Source of the DNA: a virus
Lineage: Duplodnaviria > Caudoviricetes
Reading direction: 5' to 3' (one strand)
Virus record (IMG/VR): IMGVR_UViG_3300013426_000035
Location: 1,329 to 65,328 of that record
DNA length: 64,000 nt
The first letter of the stretch is position 1; each line of letters starts with the position of its first letter. Below the pieces are notes generated by a model. That model saw nothing but the letters and a program-made list of their open reading frames with translations, was not told the origin of the DNA and made no database searches. The translations under genes were made by a program, and so were the position numbers. Of the stretch, positions 2,079 through 22,182 are shown piece after piece.

Positions 2079-2396
2079 ATGGACTGCATGACACATGACG
2101 AAGGTTGCGTTTACCTTTGGGCAATGCGCTACAGCTTTGGGAGAATGACGGCGGCGCCTGACGTAGTTTGCGAACAGATTAAACTTAAGGTCAAGCAACT
2201 GCCGACAAGCGTTTTGATGGTGATTGCAAAGGAGATTTGGGAAGCGTCCAGTATCGACAGGGAAGCGCGGAAAAGAGACGAAAACGCGCCTGTTTTGCTG
2301 GGCGGTGGCTCCATGACTGTAGCTTGGCAAAACTTGGCACTTGAAATTGAAAATGAACTCCGCATAAGAGTGAAAACAGGAGGAAACACAAAATGA
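2079..2396 (+). CDS. hypothetical protein (WAMRYSFGRMT motif)
   Basis: GAGGA SD before ATG 2079. Confidence 0.6.
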   Translation: MDCMTHDEGCVYLWAMRYSFGRMTAAPDVVCEQIKLKVKQLPTSVLMVIAKEIWEASSIDREARKRDENAPVLLGGGSMTVAWQNLALEIENELRIRVKTGGNTK

Positions 2397-2716
2397 ACAA
2401 AACGGAATTTACGCCCGGGCCGTACAATGCGGTCATAGAAGACCATCCGATGTGTGATACAGGAGAGTATTACACATCGTTTTGCATCGAAGCGGAGAAC
2501 GAAGGTAAAAAAAGAACTTTAGCTCAAGTATTCGCTTTTCGCGACAATTATGATGAGGCAGAAGCAACCACACATTTGCTCGCCGCCGCACCGGACATGT
2601 ACGCTCTGCTGGATATGATACAGACCTTTCTTACAGTTGCGGGCGATGAAAACACGCGAATCGCTTTTTTAACTCAAATCCGGAAGGTTCTGGCAAAAGC
2701 GCGAGGTGAAAAATGA
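2393..2716 (+). CDS. phage hypothetical protein (TPGP[WY]...LLAAAPDM family)
   Basis: N-terminal FTPGPY and LLAAAPDMYALL motifs common in small phage proteins. Confidence 0.65.
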   Translation: MNKTEFTPGPYNAVIEDHPMCDTGEYYTSFCIEAENEGKKRTLAQVFAFRDNYDEAEATTHLLAAAPDMYALLDMIQTFLTVAGDENTRIAFLTQIRKVLAKARGEK

Positions 2717-3060
2717 CGATTTACGCGATTGACTTTGACGGCACGATTGTAACAGAGGAATACCCGGCAATCGGGAAGCCAATTCCGGCTACAATTGAGT
2801 TTATCCGCGCTATTCAGAAGCGTGGCGACAAGTGGATTCTCCTCACCATGCGCGAGGGGAAAAGCCTTAGGGAGGCGCTCACGTTTTTAGTGCTCCGGAA
2901 GTGCTTTCCGGCGGCGATAAACGACAATCTGCCAGAACGCGTCGAACAGTGGGGAAACAATCCACGCAAGGTTTACGCGGATATCTACATCGACGACCAT
3001 AACGCGGGCGGGCTGGTGATTCCGGAACTGGAAGAAAACAAGGAGGAAGAGGAAAAATGA
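2713..3060 (+). CDS. small HAD-superfamily phosphatase (BT0820-like)
   Basis: IYAIDFDGTI motif I; RKVYADIYIDDHN motif. Confidence 0.8.
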   Translation: MTIYAIDFDGTIVTEEYPAIGKPIPATIEFIRAIQKRGDKWILLTMREGKSLREALTFLVLRKCFPAAINDNLPERVEQWGNNPRKVYADIYIDDHNAGGLVIPELEENKEEEEK

Positions 3061-3254
3061 ACCTGAAAATTAGAACTTGGAGATGTCCAGAGTGCAACAA
3101 CTTTGCTTACCCGAACTGGTGTAAAGCAAAAGAAATTAAAGTTGACCGCTATTTTGACGGAGAGTGTGATTTAGCAGAGCCGCTTGTCGAAAAAAGAACG
3201 GTTTATTTGGGCAAAACGGACAAAAGCAAGACTGGGAAGGAAGCTGAAAAATGA
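3057..3254 (+). CDS. hypothetical protein
   Basis: ATGA overlaps at both ends; CPEC. Confidence 0.5.
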   Translation: MNLKIRTWRCPECNNFAYPNWCKAKEIKVDRYFDGECDLAEPLVEKRTVYLGKTDKSKTGKEAEK

Positions 3255-3685
3255 CCCTGAAAACCTTTTTTAAGGACCCACTGACAGACGTTTTGCTTGC
3301 GATTCAGGCGTTTTTAGCAGGAATCGCGATTGCGAGAGCGGAACCCGCAGGAATCGTGGTTACAGTCTTTGGGTTGGTGATTATCGCGTATTTGCGGTTG
3401 GTTGACATGCGGATGAAGTGGATGTTTGACATGGTAGACAAGTCGCTGAAAGCAGAAAAAGACGCGTTTGACCGGAACGAAAAAACGCTTGAAATGCTGA
3501 AGACTTGCAACGCCACGCTTTCGCGGTATCGCGACTTGCTGACGATGTTTAGGGAGGGACTTATCATTGGCATGGCAAGCGCTGATGACGAGACCGCAAA
3601 AAGCTACAGGGCGTGGGTTGAGGCAATCGACCGAGCGCTGAAGGACGAACTCAAAAACTTTAATTCTGTTGCCAAGAATCATTAA
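3251..3685 (+). CDS. membrane protein (two N-terminal TM helices)
   Basis: Hydrophobic segments at about aa 13-50. Confidence 0.6.
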   Translation: MTLKTFFKDPLTDVLLAIQAFLAGIAIARAEPAGIVVTVFGLVIIAYLRLVDMRMKWMFDMVDKSLKAEKDAFDRNEKTLEMLKTCNATLSRYRDLLTMFREGLIIGMASADDETAKSYRAWVEAIDRALKDELKNFNSVAKNH

Positions 3686-3745
3686 AGAAAATCGCGAAAA
3701 ATTTTAATGACAAATCGCGTCATTAAAGAAAATCGCGGAAAATTT
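3680..3745. repeat. 25-bp direct repeat pair enclosing TTAATGAC-N7-GTCATTAA inverted repeat
   Basis: 3680-3704 and 3721-3745 are 24/25 identical; inverted repeat 3704-3726. Confidence 0.7.
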
Positions 3746-3761
3746 ATAAGGAGAAAAAATC

Positions 3762-4145
3762 ATGGCTGACGCTGTGAACCATCCGGCGCATTACGCGCCA
3801 ATCTTTGAGGCAAGACAGATAGAGTGTCTTGACATCGCGCGCTATCTCGACTTTTGCAGGGGCAATGCATTTAAGTACGTTTGGAGGGCTGGACTTAAGG
3901 GAGAACCGGGAAAGGCGATTGAAGATTGCGAAAAAGCGAAGTTTTATATGGATCGCACGCTTGACCCGGAAATGAACTTGTCCGCTATCGCAATGTTTAG
4001 AGTATTGGGGATTCCAGATGAAAAAACCTCAATCGAACGTATCAAATACAACGTTTTGCGGGAAATTTTGACTATGGACAGATTCTCCGCAATTGACGCA
4101 ATCAACACACTCGAAAACGCATTCAGAAAGGAGCTCTCAAAATGA
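3762..4145 (+). CDS. DUF3310 (SaV-like) domain protein
   Basis: DAVNHPAHY...IECLD...FCRGNAFKYVWRAG.K motif. Confidence 0.85.
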   Translation: MADAVNHPAHYAPIFEARQIECLDIARYLDFCRGNAFKYVWRAGLKGEPGKAIEDCEKAKFYMDRTLDPEMNLSAIAMFRVLGIPDEKTSIERIKYNVLREILTMDRFSAIDAINTLENAFRKELSK

Positions 4146-4915
4146 GAATCATTGAACCGTCCGTCGAAATCTACACCGAATACGACCACTACAAAAAAAT
4201 CGAAACAGTCGCCCGCGTTTGCACGGGAACGCAAGACAAAGTCGGAAGCAAGCCGGGCTTTGTTGAAAACCTATGGAAGAATCACCATGAAACGCCGTTC
4301 GAGCATGTGAGAGTAGCGGCGGACTGGGACATTCTGCGTCTTTGGGTTAAATCTTACGGTATTTGGGATCGAATTGGAACAACCGGGGATTTGGAAAAAC
4401 GCCTCACAATCAATGTCCGCGATTATCTTACATTAGGTGGGAAACTCAAAGACTTGGAAGAATTGCCGGAAGCTGACGATTACATGACTGTAAAATTTAC
4501 TGTTGACATCGGCGTTTCACGCGAGCTTATCCGGCACCGACAGTTCAGCTTCCAAGAAAGATCAACGCGGTATTGCAACATGTCCGACTGTATCGACTTT
4601 ATCAAGCCCGTTCCGTTCGCATGGGATGAATTCGGTGTTTTGAGCGACGCGTGGCATATGGAGTGCGTCTCAGCGGAAGCCGCGTATCGCCTGATGATTC
4701 GCAAGGGAGCCCGTCCGCAGGAAGCCCGAACCGTCCTTCCGCTCTCAACTGCGACAGTGTTGTATGTCACCGGGATGTACAAGCAGTGGGAAGATATGCT
4801 CAAGCTCCGTCTCGCGCCCGGCGCACATCCGCAAATGCGCTACATCATGGAAAAGCTCGTTGAGCTTGAAGACTTTCCAAAAGACAAAATCAAAGTTCCG
4901 GAGGTGGAAAAATGA
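4142..4915 (+). CDS. thyX: FAD-dependent thymidylate synthase
   Basis: SRELIRHRQFSFQERSTRY signature; H.TPFEH; QEARTVLP. Confidence 0.92.
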   Translation: MRIIEPSVEIYTEYDHYKKIETVARVCTGTQDKVGSKPGFVENLWKNHHETPFEHVRVAADWDILRLWVKSYGIWDRIGTTGDLEKRLTINVRDYLTLGGKLKDLEELPEADDYMTVKFTVDIGVSRELIRHRQFSFQERSTRYCNMSDCIDFIKPVPFAWDEFGVLSDAWHMECVSAEAAYRLMIRKGARPQEARTVLPLSTATVLYVTGMYKQWEDMLKLRLAPGAHPQMRYIMEKLVELEDFPKDKIKVPEVEK

Positions 4916-5235
4916 CTGAACAGGAAAAACGAGAACGCAACAAGCCCAGCATTGAATCGGGGCTTCCAACTTGGGATGAAATACAACAGATTATTGCCGG
5001 GGTAAAAGGGGTAAAAGGTGTAAAAGAGCCAGAGTCGAGCGAGTTTGAGGAGATTTTCCACTGCGCCTTGAACGACATTTTGCGAGTGTGTGTACATGCT
5101 CCGCAGTCGGAAGAGATAAGGGAAATTGAGCATATCGGATCGCAAGCCCTTACACTTTATTTGGATACCATCGAAAAAACCAAATATCGGAATTTTAAGG
5201 ACATGTATTTCCACGAAAAGGAGGCGGGAAAATGA
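4912..5235 (+). CDS. hypothetical protein
   Basis: GGAGG SD; ATGA overlaps. Confidence 0.55.
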   Translation: MTEQEKRERNKPSIESGLPTWDEIQQIIAGVKGVKGVKEPESSEFEEIFHCALNDILRVCVHAPQSEEIREIEHIGSQALTLYLDTIEKTKYRNFKDMYFHEKEAGK

Positions 5236-5504
5236 GAAACCTCGTTTACGAATCTGAGTACAACAGGGGAGCTCGTGACATGGCGCTTGCTATAATCCAG
5301 CACCTGAAAAAAAACGGTGGCAGGATTTTAGAACAAACACCCAAAAAAAACATGTTACAGTTTCTAAGCCTGCTTGAAACGTGGGTCGGAAGAGGCTTTA
5401 ACGCGTCGGAACTGTGTAGATACGGTAACAACGGCTTAAGCTTTGAAATTGAGAGCAAAAACGGAAACTACACAGGCATAAAACTTGAGAAAAACGGAGA
5501 TTAA
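5232..5504 (+). CDS. hypothetical protein
   Basis: ATGA overlap; operon context. Confidence 0.55.
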   Translation: MRNLVYESEYNRGARDMALAIIQHLKKNGGRILEQTPKKNMLQFLSLLETWVGRGFNASELCRYGNNGLSFEIESKNGNYTGIKLEKNGD

Positions 5505-5506
5505 AA

Positions 5507-6121
5507 ATGACCCCCGAAAAAGTCCGTTGCATTGGCTGTAACAACATGGTCGATGCAAGAGCAGTCACCAATATTGCAACCAAAGACAAACCGTTCAAGG
5601 TGTGCCCTCAATGCGCGTTTATCGCGGGCATGTACGTTGTAGTACAAGGCAGGGAAGACAAAGCGTTTGAACCCGGAGCGTTTGACTTGTCCAGAATTGC
5701 CGCGCCAATACGGAAAATCGTCAAGGAGGAGTATCTTAAAGACCCCGTCGGCACTACAGAAAAGTACATGGGCAAGGCGCTTGACGAAGAGCAGGAACGC
5801 AAAAAAGCAGAACGCAAGGCAAAACGCGAAGCCAAGAAGCGCGAAAAAGAGGAAGCGGAGCGCAAGGCAAAAGAAATCGCGGACGGAATTTTTCACGTTC
5901 CACACGCGCTGTATAAAAAGATACAGCTGAAAAACCGTCGGATCGTCCTTTTGCCGCTCGAATACAAGCCATTTAACGCCCGAAAAGGCAAGGTTTTGAC
6001 AATTGTTTCCGATAACGGAAATGTCGCAAAACGCATAATCCGGCGTGCAAAGACAATACGCAATCAGGGAGAGCGCGTAATCGCCTGTATCCTTGAAGAA
6101 AAGTCCGCAAAAATCGCTTGA
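5507..6121 (+). CDS. hypothetical protein with CxxC pairs and charged coiled coil
   Basis: CIGC...CPQC; GGAG SD. Confidence 0.6.
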   Translation: MTPEKVRCIGCNNMVDARAVTNIATKDKPFKVCPQCAFIAGMYVVVQGREDKAFEPGAFDLSRIAAPIRKIVKEEYLKDPVGTTEKYMGKALDEEQERKKAERKAKREAKKREKEEAERKAKEIADGIFHVPHALYKKIQLKNRRIVLLPLEYKPFNARKGKVLTIVSDNGNVAKRIIRRAKTIRNQGERVIACILEEKSAKIA

Positions 6122-6156
6122 ATATTAGCAAAAACACAAAGAAAGGTTATATTACC

Positions 6157-6588
6157 ATGGCAAGCATGAAAATCAAGTTTAAGAAACTCACACCCGAAGC
6201 GCAAGCTCCGAAGCAAGGCAAGTCCGGCGATGCTGGATTTGACCTTACAGCCACCAGAGTTGAACGCCTTGACAGTATCAGAGTTAAGGCGTATTCCGGT
6301 ATTGCCGTCGAAATCCCCGAAGGATTCGAAGGACAGCTTAGAGCACGTTCCAGTATCCACAAATCCGACGCAATATTGTCCAATGGTGTTGGTACGATTG
6401 ACTCCGGGTATCGCGGCGAAATTTGCGCGGTATTTTATCATTGCGGACCTGATTTGCCTTACGAAGCAGGGGACAGATTCGCGCAACTTGTCATAAAACC
6501 AGTGCCGCGCGTCGAATATGTAGAGGCTGACGAACTATCCGAATCGGAACGCGGCGCGGGCGGTTATGGTTCCACGGGCAAAAATTGA
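6157..6588 (+). CDS. dut: dUTP diphosphatase (trimeric)
   Basis: AGFDL, RSS, GTIDSGYRGEI, RFAQL and RGAGGYGSTG motifs 1-5. Confidence 0.95.
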   Translation: MASMKIKFKKLTPEAQAPKQGKSGDAGFDLTATRVERLDSIRVKAYSGIAVEIPEGFEGQLRARSSIHKSDAILSNGVGTIDSGYRGEICAVFYHCGPDLPYEAGDRFAQLVIKPVPRVEYVEADELSESERGAGGYGSTGKN

Positions 6589-14914: not shown

Positions 14915-17479
14915 ATGATGGCAGTGAACGAAATCGGGCTTCCGGCGTTGCATCCTCGACAAGGTTGCGTGCTGAAAACGGACGCAACAGAAATTTTGTA
15001 CGGAGGGGCTGCGGGCGGTGGGAAAGCGCTATGGATTGAAACGCCAATTTTGACCGATTCCGGCTTTAAACGAATGGCTGATGTGCATGTTGGGGATGTT
15101 GTTTTTGACGAAAACGGGAAACCTTGCAATGTCATAGCAGAAACACCAATTTTGACAGACAGACCATGCCGGAAAGTCGTTTTTGATGATGGCTCTAAAA
15201 TTATCGCTGACGATTTGCATCAGTGGGTAACAAAGACAGACGCACAAAGAGTGGCGGAACACAAAAGAACGCCCGAATACCGCGCAAATCGGCGCGCAAA
15301 ACGTCCCTTGCGTGGCATGGGTAAGCGCCCGGATTTGGCAGTTGCAAACTCAAAACGCGTGTATTGTGGCGATGAACGCAAGTTTGAATCTGTCGTTACG
15401 ACGGAAACCATTGCGGCAACCTTACGAGTGCGTGGACGGCTGAATCACTCTGTAGCGGTTTGCGGGGCTGTTGAAATGCCGGAATCGCGGGAGGAGCTGA
15501 TAATCCCTCCTTACGTGCTGGGTTTGTGGCTCGGTGATGGCAACTCCGACGGGTGTGGATTTTCTACTGGCGATGACGATGTTATCCCTTACATCCGCGC
15601 TTGCGGATTTGAAGTTACCAAACGTGCGGCAAAATACAAGTGGGGGATAATCGGTTTAACTCCGCTCCTTAAACGCCTGAATCTGATACACAATAAGCAC
15701 GTGCCGGAACGGTACCTGTTTACCTCGATTGAAAACCGGATGGAACTTTTGCGCGGCTTTATGGATTCGGACGGTACAGTTGGCGAGAATGGGCATTGTG
15801 AGTATACCAGCATTAACAAAGACATTGCAGTGTCTTTGTGCTTTTTGCTTAACTCGCTCGGAATCAAGGCAACTCTTAAGCAGGGTATAGCGCGCCTGAA
15901 TGGTAAGGATTGCGGCATAAAATACCGCGTGCATTTTATCCCGTGGCAGACTGATATAACGCGCTTGGACAGGTACAAAAAACGCATAAAAACGGTACGG
16001 AATCCATATTCGCGGCGGCGGATGATTGTATCTACGGATCGTTGTAAGAGCGTGCCTGTCAAGTGTATACAGGTTGATTCCGCGTCCAGCTGTTATCTTG
16101 CCGGGAAAAGCTGTATTCCAACGCATAACTCGTTTTTAATGCGCATTTTTGCCATTATGCTTTGCGATAACGTCAAAGGCTTGCAAGTGTACCTTTTCCG
16201 TCGCCTGAGTGATGATCTGCTGAAAAACCATTTTGAAGGTGAAACAGGCTTTCCGGCGTTGCTTGCTGAAGCGGTGGAACATAAGAGTGTACGCATTACG
16301 ACAAACCCTCCCAAAATACGTTTTGTGGAATCAGGGAGCACTATACATTTGTGCCATTGCCAGTACGAAAAAGACGTCATGAAGTATCAGGGCGCGGAAA
16401 TTGGCGTGCTGTTGATTGACGAATTAACGCACTTTACAGAGTATCAATACCGCTTTTTGCGCGGGCGCTGTCGAGTGTCAAAACAGGTTGCAATTGACCC
16501 GGCAATCAGGAAATTGATACCAAATTTGACGTTTCCAAAAATATTGTGCGGTTCGAATCCCGGCGGTCCCGGACATAACTGGGTTAAAGCGATGTTTATC
16601 GACCCACAGCCAGCGGAAACCATTTGGAAAACAGCCGCTTCTGAAGGTGGAATGCTCCGGCAATTTGTACCTGCGAAGCTGTCAGATAATCCCTCGCTCA
16701 ATCAGGAAGAATACGCTAACCGCTTGCGTGGATTAGGGCAAGACTGGTTGATTAAAGCGATGTTGGAAGGCGACTGGAACATCACGGCGGGAGGGGCTGT
16801 TGATGACCTCTGGAACGAGCAAATCCACGTTATGCCGCGCTTTAAAATTCCTGAATCGTGGTACATTGTCAAGAGTTACGATGATGGCAACTCTCACCCG
16901 TGGGCGGTCGGCTGGTTTGCTGTATCTGATGGCACTGATTACGTGACAGCGGACGGAGAAAAGCGCCCTACAATCGCAGGAGACGCGTTTTTAATACAGG
17001 AGCTTTACGGTTCCACAGGAAAGGCAAATGAGGGCGATAAATCCAGTATCAGAGACCGTGCAGAACGCATAAAAGAGACGGAAAAAATGCTCGGTTATCG
17101 CGTTGACGAAAGCATCGCAGATTCCGCGATTTTTGCCTCAACCTCGGCGGCTCAAGTGACTGTTGCGAAGCAGTTTGAGGAGTATGGCGTGTTTTTTGCG
17201 CCTTGCAACAAAGCGCCCGGAACGCGGCATCAGATGTTGACGCTACTTAGAGAGCGCCTTACAGGCGCAATCGAACGCGACGCGGACGCTGGGTTATTTG
17301 TGTTTGACCATTGCCGGAATTTTATCCGGACGGTGCCTGTTTTACAGCGCTCACAAAGAGACCCTGACGATGTGGACACCACGCAGGAAGACCATATCTA
17401 TGACTTGACAGGCTATTTCTTGCTTGGCGAATACGCATCCCGGAAAATCGTTGTTGCCTCTGCTGGTAACGTAGGCTGA
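14915..17479 (+). CDS. terminase large subunit, intein-containing
   Basis: Walker A GGAAGGGK|S split by intein; Walker B LLIDE; GSNPGG coupling motif; C-terminal nuclease DHIYD. Confidence 0.93.
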   Translation: MMAVNEIGLPALHPRQGCVLKTDATEILYGGAAGGGKALWIETPILTDSGFKRMADVHVGDVVFDENGKPCNVIAETPILTDRPCRKVVFDDGSKIIADDLHQWVTKTDAQRVAEHKRTPEYRANRRAKRPLRGMGKRPDLAVANSKRVYCGDERKFESVVTTETIAATLRVRGRLNHSVAVCGAVEMPESREELIIPPYVLGLWLGDGNSDGCGFSTGDDDVIPYIRACGFEVTKRAAKYKWGIIGLTPLLKRLNLIHNKHVPERYLFTSIENRMELLRGFMDSDGTVGENGHCEYTSINKDIAVSLCFLLNSLGIKATLKQGIARLNGKDCGIKYRVHFIPWQTDITRLDRYKKRIKTVRNPYSRRRMIVSTDRCKSVPVKCIQVDSASSCYLAGKSCIPTHNSFLMRIFAIMLCDNVKGLQVYLFRRLSDDLLKNHFEGETGFPALLAEAVEHKSVRITTNPPKIRFVESGSTIHLCHCQYEKDVMKYQGAEIGVLLIDELTHFTEYQYRFLRGRCRVSKQVAIDPAIRKLIPNLTFPKILCGSNPGGPGHNWVKAMFIDPQPAETIWKTAASEGGMLRQFVPAKLSDNPSLNQEEYANRLRGLGQDWLIKAMLEGDWNITAGGAVDDLWNEQIHVMPRFKIPESWYIVKSYDDGNSHPWAVGWFAVSDGTDYVTADGEKRPTIAGDAFLIQELYGSTGKANEGDKSSIRDRAERIKETEKMLGYRVDESIADSAIFASTSAAQVTVAKQFEEYGVFFAPCNKAPGTRHQMLTLLRERLTGAIERDADAGLFVFDHCRNFIRTVPVLQRSQRDPDDVDTTQEDHIYDLTGYFLLGEYASRKIVVASAGNVG
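15026..16129 (+). mobile_element. class 3 intein (368 aa, Ala1) with LAGLIDADG homing endonuclease
   Basis: ALWIETPI start; block B ADDLHQW; LGLWLGDG and LRGFMDSDG; block F VKCIQV; block G IPTHN then Ser+1. Confidence 0.92.
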
Positions 17480-17545: not shown

Positions 17546-19087
17546 ATGGCAGGTATAAAACGTGACGAAGAGCCTAAACTTTCAGAATTTGCGTTCAGCG
17601 GTTACGATGATTTTGTAGTGAGGCGGCGGCGTGTTGCTGATTGCTTGGGTGGGCAATTGATTGTCAAAGGTGAGGCAGACAAATACCTCCCACGCGACAA
17701 ATGGCAAAAAGAACACACAGAGGATTACGCAGCATATCTCAACCGTGCGCTGTTTTTTAATTACACCCGAAAAGCGCTGAATCGGTACGTTGGAATGCTT
17801 GACATGGGAGAGCCTGATATTGTTTTGGGTTCTGACAAGCTCGAATTTATGCGCGATACAGCAACACAGTTTGGCGATGGGCTGAAAGCTCTACAGAGGC
17901 GTGTCAACACTGCGCAATTGTCGCGTGGTTTGATTTGCCTGTTGCTGGAATCTACAGGCGATAACGAGCGTCCATTTGTAATCCAGACATACGATGCAAA
18001 CGCATTTTTACGCACGGATTTTGTGACTGTCGACGGCAAGAGCGAAATCAAGTTTGTGCTACTTGATGAATCGGGATATGACTACAACCCTGTCACAAAA
18101 CAAGATGAATACAAGTATCGAATGCGCGTTCTCGGGATCGACGGGCGCGGATATTACTATCAGGCGGCAATCTCGCCTGAAGAGTGGGCAAAATTTAACA
18201 TTGACGAACCATCCGGCAATGTTGTTTATCCTGATTGCTTTGGAAAGCCTCTTGACAGAGTGCCTTTTACGTGGTGTGGAGCGTCCAACCTGTCCGGAAA
18301 GGACTTTCAGGAACCGCCAATTTTGAACGTGGCAGATGCGGAAATCTCGCTGTATCAGCTGTACGCGGACTTCAGACAGGTCATGTTTATGACTGGACAA
18401 ACTCCCCTTGTTGTTGCAGGGCTTAAAGGCAAGGTTGAGGATATTAATAAGTCCCTGAGTGCTTTAAAGGTCGGTTCCGGTGCTGTTATGGGCTTGCCTG
18501 AGGGAGCGAATGCGGGCTATCTCGAAATGGCGGCAAGCTCCTTGCAGACAATTTCCGGTGAGGTTGAGACGCTGAAAAAGCTCTGTACGGATGACGCGCT
18601 GAGTATTGGCGATGCACAGGCGAATGAATCCGGCGTTGCCTTGCAGTTGCGTGTTGATTCCAACACCTCGCCTTTGCAGATTATCAACTCAACCGCTGGC
18701 GATGCGATTACAGAGCAGTTGCGTTATGCCGCGCGCTGGCTTGGCATGTCTTACGATGAGATACTTGAGACGCGTTATACGCCCTCTAAAGACTTTGCGG
18801 AAGCGAATTTGACAGTGCAAGAGCTTGTAGCCATTGAAAGCTCTGAATCGCTCACGCAAGAGGAAAAGCGCAAGGCGTGGACTGACAATGGTTATGGCAA
18901 CCCTAAAATCACGTTTGATGAGTTTTTGGACCAAAAAGACGCAGACACGGAGCGTAGTATGGCAGGTGCAATGTCGCAGATGATGTCGGGCGGCGCGGCA
19001 ACTGGGAATCCATTTGCAACCTCCGGAAACGGCGGCAACGAACAGGCAAAAGCGAGCGTAAACAATGGCAACGAAAAGAACGCTTGA
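17546..19087 (+). CDS. portal protein (DUF4055 / SPP1-like)
   Basis: Follows terL; YLP...Y..YL.RALFFNYT pattern; 513 aa. Confidence 0.8.
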   Translation: MAGIKRDEEPKLSEFAFSGYDDFVVRRRRVADCLGGQLIVKGEADKYLPRDKWQKEHTEDYAAYLNRALFFNYTRKALNRYVGMLDMGEPDIVLGSDKLEFMRDTATQFGDGLKALQRRVNTAQLSRGLICLLLESTGDNERPFVIQTYDANAFLRTDFVTVDGKSEIKFVLLDESGYDYNPVTKQDEYKYRMRVLGIDGRGYYYQAAISPEEWAKFNIDEPSGNVVYPDCFGKPLDRVPFTWCGASNLSGKDFQEPPILNVADAEISLYQLYADFRQVMFMTGQTPLVVAGLKGKVEDINKSLSALKVGSGAVMGLPEGANAGYLEMAASSLQTISGEVETLKKLCTDDALSIGDAQANESGVALQLRVDSNTSPLQIINSTAGDAITEQLRYAARWLGMSYDEILETRYTPSKDFAEANLTVQELVAIESSESLTQEEKRKAWTDNGYGNPKITFDEFLDQKDADTERSMAGAMSQMMSGGAATGNPFATSGNGGNEQAKASVNNGNEKNA

Positions 19088-20009
19088 AGAGCTGGCAGAA
19101 ATCGTCAATACTCACCTCGCCAATTTGCAACGTATAGGCGTTAACTGGTCGGGCGATTTGCTGGAACACCTGAAAGAGGTGCAAGCGGAACTGATGGATT
19201 ATGTCCTTTCTGCACAGAAGAGTTTCGGGAGCGCTGGGCTCGATTCCGGCACTAACAAACGCCTGAAAATCATCAAAACGAAAATAGAATCCCTGTTGAA
19301 TCAAGCGTATTCGCAGGGATACGATACTATCAGCACGCAAGCGACTGGATTGGCTGAAAATGAGGCTAAACACGCAGCAAGTCTTGTTCGGGCGATGGCT
19401 GGAACGGCGGTTGCGCAGGTTGGAAAGCGGACGGTTGAAAACATCGTGAAATACGGGCGTTTTAATGGCTTGACGCTTGCGGAAATGTTCAACTCGATGT
19501 CGGTAAAGGATGCGGACAAAATCTACACCACAGTAGCTAAAAACATCCTTTCCGGCTCCACACCTCAAAGTCTGAAAAAAGCGGTCCAGCACGTGTTTGA
19601 TGTATCGAATTATACGGCTAAAACGGTCGGTTTGACGTGCGCAAATGGCATATCAAACGACGCGCGGCTTGCCACTTTTGCACAAAACGACGATGTCGTT
19701 AAAGGCATTGAGATACTTAACACGCTTGATGGGAGGACATGCTTAGCAAGGGGGCAATTAATACAAACTCCGAATGGTGAAAAGCCTATTGAGACGGTTA
19801 AAACTGGTGACTTTGTGATTGGGGGGAGTAGAAACAGGCGAAGGGTGCTTGGAACGTCCACGAAGAAAGTGAAACAGATTGTTGTTGTTACTCTTTCAAA
19901 CGGTGAAAAGATAAGATGCACAGCAGACCATTTATTCCTGACGAAAAACAAGGAGTGGAAAGATGCAGGAAAACTTAGAATTGGTGAAAAACTCGCAGAA
20001 AGTCTTTAA
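19065..20009 (+). CDS. MuF/gp7 head morphogenesis protein N-part fused to split-intein N-half (IntN 19740-20006)
   Basis: ...TLDGRT|CLARGQLIQTPNG...CTADHLF...LRIGEKLAESL*; Cys1 and block B TxxH. Confidence 0.9.
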   Translation: MATKRTLEELAEIVNTHLANLQRIGVNWSGDLLEHLKEVQAELMDYVLSAQKSFGSAGLDSGTNKRLKIIKTKIESLLNQAYSQGYDTISTQATGLAENEAKHAASLVRAMAGTAVAQVGKRTVENIVKYGRFNGLTLAEMFNSMSVKDADKIYTTVAKNILSGSTPQSLKKAVQHVFDVSNYTAKTVGLTCANGISNDARLATFAQNDDVVKGIEILNTLDGRTCLARGQLIQTPNGEKPIETVKTGDFVIGGSRNRRRVLGTSTKKVKQIVVVTLSNGEKIRCTADHLFLTKNKEWKDAGKLRIGEKLAESL

Positions 20010-20793
20010 ATGTCTTGTTTGTGGTAAGACTTTTTGTGACAAAAAACACGCTAAACGTAAATATTGCTCTCCGGAGTGTCAACATAAAGGCAGGCGAAAA
20101 AGATGCGGTGTGACATGTCATTGGTGCGGTAAAAAGTTCAAGGCAACTGACGATGAAAATTTTTTCTGCTCTAGGCAATGCTATGATTCGTTTCGGGCAG
20201 AAAAAATAAAGCAAAGAATGCGTCCTTGTAAAGTGTGCGGTACTATGTTTGACCCAACTAAACATGAGGCAGATTATTGCTCTAATGAATGTTGGAGAAG
20301 AGACCAAACCGCAAAACTTTTGCGTTTTTGTGTTGTGTGTGGGCAAATGTTTGTTCCGTGGAAGGGTGATGTTTTTCATGATATGCCGATTGCGTGTTCT
20401 TCAAAATGTTTGGAGATATATTCCAAACAGCAAGAAGAAATTAGGCGTAAAAAAATATCTTTGGCGTTTCGCGGTGTTAATCATCCAGCATGGCTTGGCG
20501 GGAAACAAAATTGGAGAGGTGAAAACTGGAAATGGCAGAGAAGTGCTGCTCTAAAAAGAGATGGTTATAAATGTTGCTCTTGCGGAATATCCAACAAGGC
20601 ACATAAAAAGAAATACAAGAGCTCTCTAGAAGTACACCATATAAAGCCATTTCGATTCTTTGGGGATGATTACATGGCGGCTAATGATTTGGAGAATTTA
20701 ATAACGCTTTGCATTAGCTGTCATAAAAAAGCTGAATACGAATACTATAGGAGGCATCCGGATGTTGTACGTCGCAAACATAGAAGTCATTGA
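19963..20793 (+). CDS. free-standing HNH homing endonuclease with Zn-finger repeats
   Basis: RDGYKCCSCG...LEVHHIKP...NLITLCISCH; AAGGAG SD 7 nt upstream; separate frame. Confidence 0.9.
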   Translation: MQENLELVKNSQKVFKCLVCGKTFCDKKHAKRKYCSPECQHKGRRKRCGVTCHWCGKKFKATDDENFFCSRQCYDSFRAEKIKQRMRPCKVCGTMFDPTKHEADYCSNECWRRDQTAKLLRFCVVCGQMFVPWKGDVFHDMPIACSSKCLEIYSKQQEEIRRKKISLAFRGVNHPAWLGGKQNWRGENWKWQRSAALKRDGYKCCSCGISNKAHKKKYKSSLEVHHIKPFRFFGDDYMAANDLENLITLCISCHKKAEYEYYRRHPDVVRRKHRSH

Positions 20794-21379
20794 AGAAGAA
20801 GTAGATGTCTTTGATATTACAGTTGAAACAGACGAATCGTTTATTTGCGCTGGTGCTGTTTTACATAATTGCCCTACATGTGCCCAAATCGGGGGGTTAC
20901 GCTTTGCTGTTGACGCAAAAGATATACCAGTGCTTCCGGTGCATCCGCGCTGTCGTTGCTGTTATATCCCTGTTACTGTGCTCTCTGATATGTCAGAGGT
21001 TACCAGACCTGCCGCGAATGCTGATTTTATGACAGAGGCAAAACGGGCGTATGAGGCAAAATATCCCGACAAAAACTGGAATAATTTGGCTGAAAGCTCG
21101 AAGAAGCGCTATTATCATCAGGCAATACACGCGTATGAGGAGCGCACGGGAAAACCAGCATTCCGGCAAGTGTCAGGCTCTATGACTTTTGCGGAATATT
21201 TTGAATCTCAAAGCGAGCAGTTCAAGCGGGATTGGCTAAAGCCTACTAGATACAGATTGTACAAAAAAGGTATGCTCTCCCTGAATGACATAATGGACCC
21301 GGCAACAGACCGCCTTTTTACGCTTTCCGAACTCAAAAAGCGCGATATTGACGCTTTCAAAAAGGCTGGGTTGATGTGA
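20762..21379 (+). CDS. split-intein C-half (IntC 20762-20869) fused to MuF/gp7 C-part
   Basis: MLYV...VFDITVETDESFICAGAVLHN|CPTC...PVHPRCRC; AGGAGG SD at 20749-20754. Confidence 0.9.
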   Translation: MLYVANIEVIEEEVDVFDITVETDESFICAGAVLHNCPTCAQIGGLRFAVDAKDIPVLPVHPRCRCCYIPVTVLSDMSEVTRPAANADFMTEAKRAYEAKYPDKNWNNLAESSKKRYYHQAIHAYEERTGKPAFRQVSGSMTFAEYFESQSEQFKRDWLKPTRYRLYKKGMLSLNDIMDPATDRLFTLSELKKRDIDAFKKAGLM

Positions 21380-21471
21380 TAAAAATGGGTTTAGGTTGAC
21401 AACTATCTCCTAGTTTAGAAAGTTGCAAACATGAGGTTTGCGGCTGAAAACAAAACAGGAGTGTGTCAATC

Positions 21472-22182
21472 ATGGGATTGAAATTTAAGGTCGAAAATCT
21501 GAACGATGTAGCAGAGGAACACAAGAAACTTTACACCGAACGCGATGGCGCGTTTTATTTGGATGTCGAAGGGATGCCCTCCGGCAAAACAGATGAAGAT
21601 GTGAAGAAACTGCAAAACGCGCTTGAAAAAGAGCGGAACGACCACAAAGCGGCAAAAGAGAAAATCCGCTCATTTGTGGACGAATTCGGCGATTCAGAAA
21701 GCATTCGGGAGCGGTTTGATGAACTTGAGAACCTCAAGTCAAGCGGCGGCAAGTCTAACGAAGAACTGCTGGATTACAAGAAGCGGCTCCGGGCGACTGA
21801 GAAAGAGCGCGACAGCTACAAGACGCAGTTTGAAGCGCGTCAGAAACGCCTTGACGAACTGGAAGCGGTCGACAAAAGAACGAAAGTGCATGGCAAGCTG
21901 AAAGAAATCGTTGAAGCGCTTGATGCGAAATACGACAAATCCAAAATCTATTCCGTGCTTGAGGACTATGAGGACATGTTTGAGCTCGATGATGTCGGCG
22001 ATCTTGCGCCCTTTAAGGGCAAGGCGCTTAAAGACTGGATTCCAGCAAGAGCAGACCTTTTTAACTTTTACGTTGCCTCAACTCCGGGAGGTTCCAAACC
22101 GGGAAATGGACCTTGCGGCGCTGAAAAAGCCAACGCGTCGGGAGATGTTTTTGAACAGATTGCGGATACGCTCCATGGCTAA
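21472..22182 (+). CDS. capsid scaffolding protein
   Basis: LKFKVENL.DV.E..K.LY.E.DG.FYLDVEG...KLQNALEKER coiled coil; precedes capsid gene. Confidence 0.75.
   Translation: MGLKFKVENLNDVAEEHKKLYTERDGAFYLDVEGMPSGKTDEDVKKLQNALEKERNDHKAAKEKIRSFVDEFGDSESIRERFDELENLKSSGGKSNEELLDYKKRLRATEKERDSYKTQFEARQKRLDELEAVDKRTKVHGKLKEIVEALDAKYDKSKIYSVLEDYEDMFELDDVGDLAPFKGKALKDWIPARADLFNFYVASTPGGSKPGNGPCGAEKANASGDVFEQIADTLHG

Follow-up and report, generated by a model that had tools for sequence, protein, structure and literature searches.

How can the gene of a virion protein be broken into two pieces, in different reading frames and with a nuclease gene lodged between them, and give rise to a complete product? 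This question is raised by a head-module locus of a tailed phage (Duplodnaviria; Caudoviricetes) in IMG/VR record IMGVR_UViG_3300013426_000035. The stretch of DNA analysed, hereafter the window, comprises 64,000 nucleotides, that is, the 65,328-base record minus its first 1328 bases; CheckV gives the record a completeness of 100%, and the window represents a complete phage genome. At the locus, the gene for a MuF/SPP1-gp7 head-morphogenesis protein is divided between two open reading frames (ORFs A and C), each fused to one half of an intein, and a free-standing HNH endonuclease gene (ORF B) lies between them. Our answer, which we regard as highly probable, is that the MuF gene was invaded at the conserved site TLDGR(T)/CxxC by a selfish 1130-bp cassette consisting of the N-terminal intein half (IntN), the HNH gene, and the C-terminal intein half (IntC), which would restore the MuF protein by trans-splicing and spread by homing.

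The MuF exteins and the two intein halves

The three ORFs occupy three different frames, with overlaps of 47 nt (A/B) and 32 nt (B/C) (Table 1). A preliminary description of this DNA, made from the sequence alone, had recognized this layout, had assigned a strong Shine–Dalgarno sequence of its own to each downstream ORF, and had described an 89-amino-acid (aa) IntN (Cys1, TADH, then a stop codon) and a 36-aa IntC (VFDITV, terminal HN), whose flanking exteins, when joined, rebuild the MuF motif TLDGRT-CPTC...HPRCRC. The ORFs and their overlaps were confirmed at the same coordinates, both Shine–Dalgarno motifs were read from the sequence, and the family profiles agreed with the assignment of the intein halves and the exteins.

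Table 1. Coordinates of the features at the interrupted MuF gene (positions in the window)
Feature	Position	Strand	Description and evidence
ORF A	19065-20009	+	314 aa, frame 0; MuF residues 1-225 followed by the 89-aa IntN
N-extein	19065-19739	+	MuF/SPP1-gp7 head-morphogenesis protein residues 1-225, ending TLDGRT; phrog_241, TIGR01641, P0009
5' co-carried flank	19719-19739	+	9/21 bases differ from the empty allele, mostly silent; Val to Thr at -1
Mobile cassette IntN-HNH-IntC	19740-20869	+	1130 bp; GC content 39.6%, 47-49% in the flanks
IntN	19740-20009	+	89 aa, Cys1...TADH...AESL, then TAA stop; Pfam, gp41-1 (6qaz), substitution rates
Shine-Dalgarno of the HNH gene	19950-19955	+	AAGGAG, 7 nt 5' of the ATG at 19963; within the IntN coding sequence
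ORF B (free-standing HNH gene)	19963-20793	+	276 aa, frame +1; four C4 zinc ribbons, then the HNH domain; Pfam HNH, phrog_1271, AlphaFold2
Shine-Dalgarno of ORF C	20749-20754	+	AGGAGG, 7 nt 5' of the ATG at 20762; within the 3' end of the HNH gene
ORF C	20762-21379	+	205 aa, frame +2; 36-aa IntC followed by MuF residues 226-394
IntC	20762-20869	+	36 aa, M...VFDITV...VLHN; Pfam Intein_splicing, TIGR01443
C-extein	20870-21379	+	MuF residues 226-394, from the +1 Cys of CPTC...HPRCRC; phrog_241, TIGR01641, P0009
3' co-carried flank	20870-20876	+	4/7 bases unlike those of the empty allele; CAS to CPT

The PHROG profile phrog_241 matched residues 4–226 of ORF A over profile positions 11–239 (E = 4.7e-31) and residues 37–204 of ORF C over positions 239–365 (E = 3.2e-27). 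The NCBIfam model TIGR01641 (SPP1 gp7 minor capsid protein) was covered from position 5 to 72 by ORF A and from 72 to 108 by ORF C, and each half alone scored below the cut-off. Because the coordinates of both profiles continue across the break, the two exteins abut to the residue. Furthermore, the N-extein is 96% identical to residues 1–225 of an uninterrupted protein (P0009), and the C-extein is collinear with residues 226–394 of the same protein, so that intact alleles of 394 aa (225 + 169) exist. The intact allele of the closely related locus L001 exceeded the cut-offs of PF04233 (37.1 vs. 29.6) and TIGR01641 (53.9 vs. 39.65). Such an exact join is far beyond chance. No solved MuF structure was found by sequence search. 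The gene stands directly downstream of the portal gene, as expected for members of the MuF family: the head module runs from TerL (14915–17479) through the portal (DUF4055; 17546–19087), MuF, and a 239-aa ORF, which we take to be the scaffold, to the major capsid protein.

In terms of the intein, the tail of ORF A matched the Pfam families Hint_2, PT-HINT, and Intein_splicing and scored at the cut-off of TIGR01445 (intein_Nterm, NCBIfam), and residues 4–36 of ORF C matched positions 123–155 of the 155 positions of Intein_splicing, IntC reaching 21.3 bits against a cut-off of 15.6 with TIGR01443 (intein_Cterm, NCBIfam). The split falls between intein blocks B and F, and each half is fused to one half of the extein. 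The nucleophile of a class 1 intein is present as Cys226 of ORF A, directly after TLDGRT, and block B TxxH as TADH; at the other end, the block F Asp (VFDITV), the penultimate His, the terminal Asn, and the +1 Cys are all found (VLHN/C). HN/C or HN/S is also present in loci L004, L005, and L007. The best solved relative of IntN was the naturally split gp41-1 intein (6qaz; E = 1e-8). The HINT fold was tested on a contiguous homologue, P0038, which is 45% identical to the window IntN; its AlphaFold2 (AF2) model had a predicted local distance difference test score (pLDDT) of 87.8, and the intein part superposed on solved mini-inteins, including gp41-1, with target template-modeling (TM) scores of 0.80–0.83. 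The alignment used for folding (A3) was preferred to another (A2) that mixed empty alleles with N- and C-fragments and misaligned the intein region. The two intein halves of the window carry net charges of +9 and −9. Charge complementarity was rejected as a trait of the family, the net charge of IntN ranging from −10 to +9 in 46 split relatives.

Selection was assessed by comparing the window with locus L002, which is approximately 90% identical in DNA sequence, with synonymous divergence (dS) of 0.2–0.4 across the cassette. The ratio of nonsynonymous to synonymous rates (dN/dS) was 0.04 for IntN, 0.10 for the HNH gene, and 0.06–0.11 for the exteins, whereas IntC, with seven synonymous and no nonsynonymous changes, gave a ratio of 0. 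These values are low and comparable to those of the exteins, indicating that all three products of the cassette are maintained as proteins. At the residue level, the 38-sequence alignment (A3) showed no variation at Cys1, at Thr or His of TxxH, or at Thr −1, and the block F Asp, the His–Asn terminus, and the +1 Cys or Ser were kept in all five IntC sequences compared. Purifying selection on intein halves with intact catalytic residues fits a need for trans-splicing. Alternatively, the MuF fragments might be held together non-covalently by the intein halves, or might act separately, without any protein splicing. Genes fractured by an HNH gene can work without inteins, as documented for nrdA of phage Aeh1 (PMC2677866), and an apparent tape-measure gene (L012) is split by a relative of the window HNH without intein halves. 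However, Cys1, TxxH, the block F Asp, the penultimate His, the terminal Asn, and the +1 Cys or Ser are kept in all lineages, Thr −1 and Cys1 being invariant across the 38 family members, and neither the dN/dS values of the two intein halves nor their closest solved relative suits this alternative, which we consider distinctly improbable. The gp41-1 intein is known for fast trans-splicing.

The layout could in principle be a sequencing or assembly artefact, that is, a contiguous HNH-containing intein broken by two frameshifts. With the ORFs in three frames (0, +1, and +2), a pair of single-base errors could fuse them, and contiguous inteins with nested out-of-frame HNH genes exist, as in the TerL of Synechococcus phage S-EIVl. 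However, assemblies made independently from different samples (L002–L006 and the locus of protein P0098) share this three-gene layout; a gap of 40 nt in L004 and of 64 nt in L005 lies between ORF A and the HNH gene; and each ORF has its own start codon, with its own strong ribosome-binding site in the window. In addition, the 89-aa IntN is close in length to that of gp41-1, and 46 cluster representatives end within the same IntN length of 86–100 aa. Both halves also fall inside the lengths reported for split inteins in fractured genes, namely 88–105 aa for IntN and 33–54 aa for IntC (Dassa et al. 2009; PMC2677866). An artefact therefore has almost no probability.

A group I or group II intron that carries the HNH ORF and is removed from the RNA is equally hard to credit. 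Phage group I introns commonly carry HNH genes, but no Rfam family was detected in positions 19000–21500, even at E-values up to 1, and the borders of the insertion are the intein termini, codon for codon. Furthermore, the sequences at both borders encode intein halves, and purifying selection acts on the protein that they specify.

The cassette transfers as a unit with short co-converted flanks

The preliminary description had proposed that the whole split unit is mobile and had called for a search of relatives for uninterrupted alleles. Such alleles of 394 aa were found (L001, P0009), and the proposal of mobility was supported by comparisons both within and between clades. The DNA of L001 is 97.5% identical to the window upstream of the insertion and 98.9% identical downstream, and window positions 19719–20876 are represented in L001 by only 28 bp. 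The local divergence between these two genomes is packed wholly into positions −21 to −1 and +1 to +7 around the insertion. Conversely, the cassettes of L002 and L003 are almost the same (DNA identity of 99.3% for IntN, 99.6% for HNH, and 100% for IntC), whereas identity falls to 50–67% in the portal, extein, scaffold, and capsid genes of the two phages; counted from the Cys1 codon, the block of identity spans −17 to +1134. Thus, the cassette transfers as a unit with short co-converted flanks. It is also an island in base composition, with a GC content of 39.6% between flanks of 47–49%.

The empty alleles indicate where the flanks came from. Those of the L002 clade (L024 and L026) equal the L002 flank at every junction-adjacent base, with two changes in L024 and four in L026 over the 66 bases compared. 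The filled alleles of the window and L003, in contrast, differ from the empty alleles of their own clades (L001 and L025) solely next to the cassette, over 15–21 bp upstream and 0–7 bp downstream. The donor was therefore probably an L002-like clade, from which the cassette would have reached two further lineages together with short co-converted flanks. Sharp borders of identity a few bases outside a mobile sequence are the classic trace of endonuclease-driven gene conversion, and they suggest this process here. Both allele states are common in the window clade (N-extein identity of at least 88%), in which filled clusters comprise 24 and 1 sequences, and empty ones 24, 2, 6, 2, 5, 109, 2, 2, and 1.

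The endonuclease that would drive such conversion is encoded by ORF B, which scored 32.8 bits against Pfam HNH (PF01844; cut-off 21.4) and matched phrog_1271 with an E-value of 3.4e-32. Across 33 HNH homologues, the four C4 zinc-ribbon modules are invariant or nearly so, as are the Cys quartet, H225/H226, N241, N245, and H254 of the HNH domain. The AF2 model had a pLDDT of 84.8, and its top fold match was the HNH protein of phage GVE2 (5h0m); its N-terminal part weakly resembled zinc-finger arrays. The HNH proteins of other lineages are homologous to that of the window, with identities of 59% and 39%, so the nuclease has co-diverged with the intein. A terminator-like hairpin (CGCAAAACTTTTGCG with a T-run) lies at 20310–20324, inside the HNH gene; it may mean nothing, given that the region contains terminator-like sites at the level of shuffled sequence (3 vs. 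2.7). Promoter-like sites numbered 9 in the region and 4.3 ± 2.0 in shuffled sequence, which we regard as near expectation.

Because the nuclease domain has its best structural match in GVE2 HNH and its gene lies in the packaging and head module, it might instead be a packaging-associated nuclease of the HK97 gp74 or GVE2 type, acting as a helper of the terminase, with the cassette spreading by ordinary recombination only. However, the HNH gene is absent from L001, the genome with nearly identical flanks, and from L024 and L026. It is hence dispensable for the phage, which argues against a role in packaging. It also always travels between intein halves, with which it has co-diverged, and the borders of identity lie sharply a few bases outside the cassette. 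A packaging function is accordingly very unlikely, more so than the absence of splicing considered above.

A second mobile element was observed in the same phages. The TerL of the window (854 aa) contains a 368-aa LAGLIDADG intein at approximately 15026–16129, directly after GGAAGGGK. This intein is present in the window, L001, L026, and L025 (TerL of 848 aa), whereas the terminases of L002 and L024 (both 486 aa) and of L003 (480 aa) lack it. Its segregation is thus independent of that of the MuF cassette, and this one phage group is polymorphic for two mobile elements.

Alleles of the MuF-a site and breadth of the family

The three-gene layout is found again in at least five other diverged lineages, and the loci that share it span a wide range of divergence, the extein proteins being approximately 70% identical to those of the window in L003, 35% in L004, and 27% in L005 and L006. 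Contigs L027 and L028, both short, show no more of the layout than an N-fragment and, after it, a homologous HNH gene. A HMMER scan with IntN against 1.84 billion representative proteins gave 2146 matches at E ≤ 0.001. Among the best 150 of these, 51 proteins, mostly of approximately 290–340 aa with a few shorter fragments, end within 8 residues of the IntN end, and 46 of the 51 follow the pattern xLDxxT/C, with IntN lengths of 86–100 aa. Counted as clusters at 50% identity, the family thus numbers about 50 among the best 150 of the 2146 matches.

Other states of the same insertion site, here called MuF-a, were also found. Contiguous mini-inteins occur in P0038 (454 aa), P0184 (494 aa), and P0066 (556 aa), and large contiguous inteins of approximately 410 aa in P0059 and P0139, in which no in-frame HNH was found. 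The MuF-a site therefore holds the whole intein life cycle, with empty, mini, large, and split-plus-HNH alleles. The split cassettes measured in the window, L004, and L005 (1130, 1154, and 1313 bp) are all 2 mod 3 in length and keep the frame order 0, +1, +2, despite the different spacing of their ORFs. This agrees with one fracture in an ancestor, after which only in-frame changes and start-codon shifts took place.

The relatives of the HNH protein reach beyond MuF. When IMG/VR was scanned with the HNH alignment, just one further fractured MuF gene was obtained (L010, on the same contig as L006), and the other HNH relatives had no detectable halves of the MuF split intein nearby. In L018, a relative is encoded by a free-standing gene beside a MuF-like gene. 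In L012 (IMGVR_UViG_3300045988_015009, 2278–6197), another (2863–3975) lies between the two apparent halves of a tape-measure gene, with the ORF borders ...AEALSYMAL stop / LLAGWDAQQMAAG...; no intein halves were detected around it, and this locus may be an intein-less fractured tape-measure gene.

Among GenBank phages, no close DNA relatives of the window were found, and tblastn retrieved only contiguous inteins, located at another MuF site in Jerseyvirus and probably at the window site in Vibrio phage 1.265.O. In Salmonella phage PK2 (L008, 2495–4354), for example, a 619-aa 'head morphogenesis protein' contains a contiguous intein at this second site (AHPN/C...IAHN/CRST; HPN/CR motif), approximately 30 residues downstream of the window site. 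Some 230 further Salmonella phage records were among the matches alongside it. Within the PK2 intein, the annotation includes two hypothetical ORFs on the other strand, which may represent an antisense endonuclease arrangement. In the cultured Vibrio phage 1.265.O (MG592630; L030, 1730–3823), a 697-aa 'hedgehog/hint domain protein' matches IntN approximately 257 residues from its start, and its gene follows the portal gene at a short distance, beyond two small ORFs on the opposite strand. It is probably a MuF gene with a contiguous intein at the same site.

Known systems, possible mechanism, and implications

The preliminary description had placed the locus in the known class of fractured genes while noting no precedent in MuF, and the literature searched supports both statements. 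Dassa et al. (2009; PMC2677866) described 26 fractured loci in gp41, IMPDH, DnaE, NrdA, NrdJ, ligase, and terminase genes from ocean metagenomes, in which split inteins (gp41-1, NrdJ-1, IMPDH-1, NrdA-2, etc.) have a free-standing endonuclease gene between their halves. The anatomy of the window cassette matches these loci: the N-extein with IntN, the endonuclease ORF, and IntC with the C-extein follow one another in the same orientation, overlapping slightly or leaving small gaps, and each has its own signals for translation; the intein is split at the usual point of endonuclease insertion; the lengths of both halves are within the published ranges; and IntN is homologous to gp41-1. However, the host of the window cassette is a virion head-morphogenesis protein rather than an enzyme of DNA metabolism, and its endonuclease is an HNH protein with four zinc ribbons, whereas the published loci encode only GIY-YIG or Vsr-like proteins, HNH having merely been predicted (PMC2677866). 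Moreover, empty and filled alleles and transfer across clades are directly seen for the window cassette.

No description of a split intein in a MuF, gp7, head-morphogenesis, or minor capsid gene was found in the literature searched. Contiguous inteins are known in the F protein, of MuF type, of a Mu-like prophage of Methylococcus capsulatus (PMC517821), and the 'minor capsid protein' inteins of actinobacteriophages have antisense or out-of-frame endonucleases (bioRxiv 10.1101/2025.01.02.630785). These contiguous MuF inteins resemble the window intein in their host protein family, their non-canonical endonuclease arrangement, and their recent transfer between divergent exteins, but each is a single polypeptide acting in cis, whereas the window intein is encoded by two genes with a sense-strand HNH gene between them. 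In phage Aeh1, the essential nrdA gene is likewise split into two co-transcribed ORFs by a free-standing HNH gene, mobE, and the subunits assemble non-covalently (PMC2677866); Aeh1 has no intein halves, whereas the window HNH is flanked by them. The annotated 846-aa terminase of phage S-EIVl (KJ410740; L009, 2109–4649) contains a contiguous intein, the central part of which has low complexity when read in the terminase frame, and a 319-aa ORF at 2692–3651 in the +1 frame, unannotated in the record, encodes zinc ribbons and an HNH domain related to the window HNH. Although its IntN is also related to that of the window (hmmsearch E = 7.7e-7), the intein frame of S-EIVl is open through the HNH region and yields one polypeptide, and the host gene is terL. 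Because relatives of the HNH gene are free-standing (L018 and L012) or nested out of frame (S-EIVl), and because allelic mini-inteins exist, we favour the view that a free-standing endonuclease gene invaded a mini-intein over the decay of an intein with an in-frame HNH.

The cassette could work as follows. The late operon has three separately initiated ORFs, each with its own start codon and the two downstream ones also with their own ribosome-binding sites, and the MuF fragments would associate through their intein halves, which would fold into a HINT domain. Splicing would take the class 1 route, in which a thioester forms at Cys1, is transferred to the +1 Cys of CPTC, and is resolved by cyclization of the terminal Asn, leaving a normal 394-aa MuF with the junction DGRT-CPTC. 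In co-infecting relatives, the zinc ribbons of the HNH protein would recognize the intein-less site, and its beta-beta-alpha-metal nuclease would cut or nick near the insertion point, so that repair from the carrier genome would copy the cassette with approximately 15–21 bp upstream and 0–7 bp downstream. Trans-splicing of the MuF halves and homing by the HNH protein are both well-supported predictions; cleavage by the HNH protein and its target are likewise predicted.

Several points weigh against this account. Splicing is deduced from sequence, and SPP1 gp7 is not known to be strictly essential, so selection for a ligated MuF may be weaker than assumed. No split MuF was found in cultured GenBank phages by tblastn with ORF A or IntN. 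In the recipient clades, 6–9 of the 21 bases upstream of the insertion point in the empty alleles are not those of the presumed native site, so that the HNH protein may not cut these alleles, and ordinary recombination during co-infection could have moved the cassette instead. Finally, empty alleles can have Val or Ile at −1, and intein splicing is known to depend on neighbouring extein residues; the converted flanks (Val or Ile to Thr at −1, and changes at +2 and +3) may thus be selected and could have been kept for splicing efficiency, rather than being a repair tract or conferring immunity to the nuclease.

Homing and trans-splicing of a selfish cassette remain our preferred explanation. 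A more far-reaching proposal, which we put forward as speculative and rather unlikely, is that the cassette serves as a weapon between phages: the HNH protein would cut the intein-less head genes of co-infecting phages, a form of marker exclusion as known for the seg and mob genes of T4, and the split intein would provide both immunity and a functional MuF, while trans-splicing might gate head maturation on a balanced supply of the two halves. If true, virion assembly would for the first time be seen to incorporate protein trans-splicing, and the family would offer an ample, as yet unexploited supply of orthogonal split inteins resembling gp41-1.

The window cassette is a fractured gene with a new class of host protein and a new endonuclease family, and it belongs to a large, undescribed family. 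It extends natural split inteins and fractured genes from enzymes of DNA metabolism to a structural, virion-associated protein, and adds HNH to the endonuclease families found between split-intein halves, as Dassa et al. (2009) predicted. Near-identical genomes with and without the cassette, together with the same cassette in flanks of approximately 60% identity, with borders defined to a few bases, are population evidence of unusual directness for the homing of a split intein together with its endonuclease gene. This evidence of transfer supports the model in which free-standing endonuclease genes invade mini-inteins, and the MuF-a site, with all of its allele states, is a good system for studying the intein life cycle. 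Furthermore, the dozens of diverged gp41-1-like split inteins, some of them strongly charge-complementary, are candidates for orthogonal protein ligation tools.

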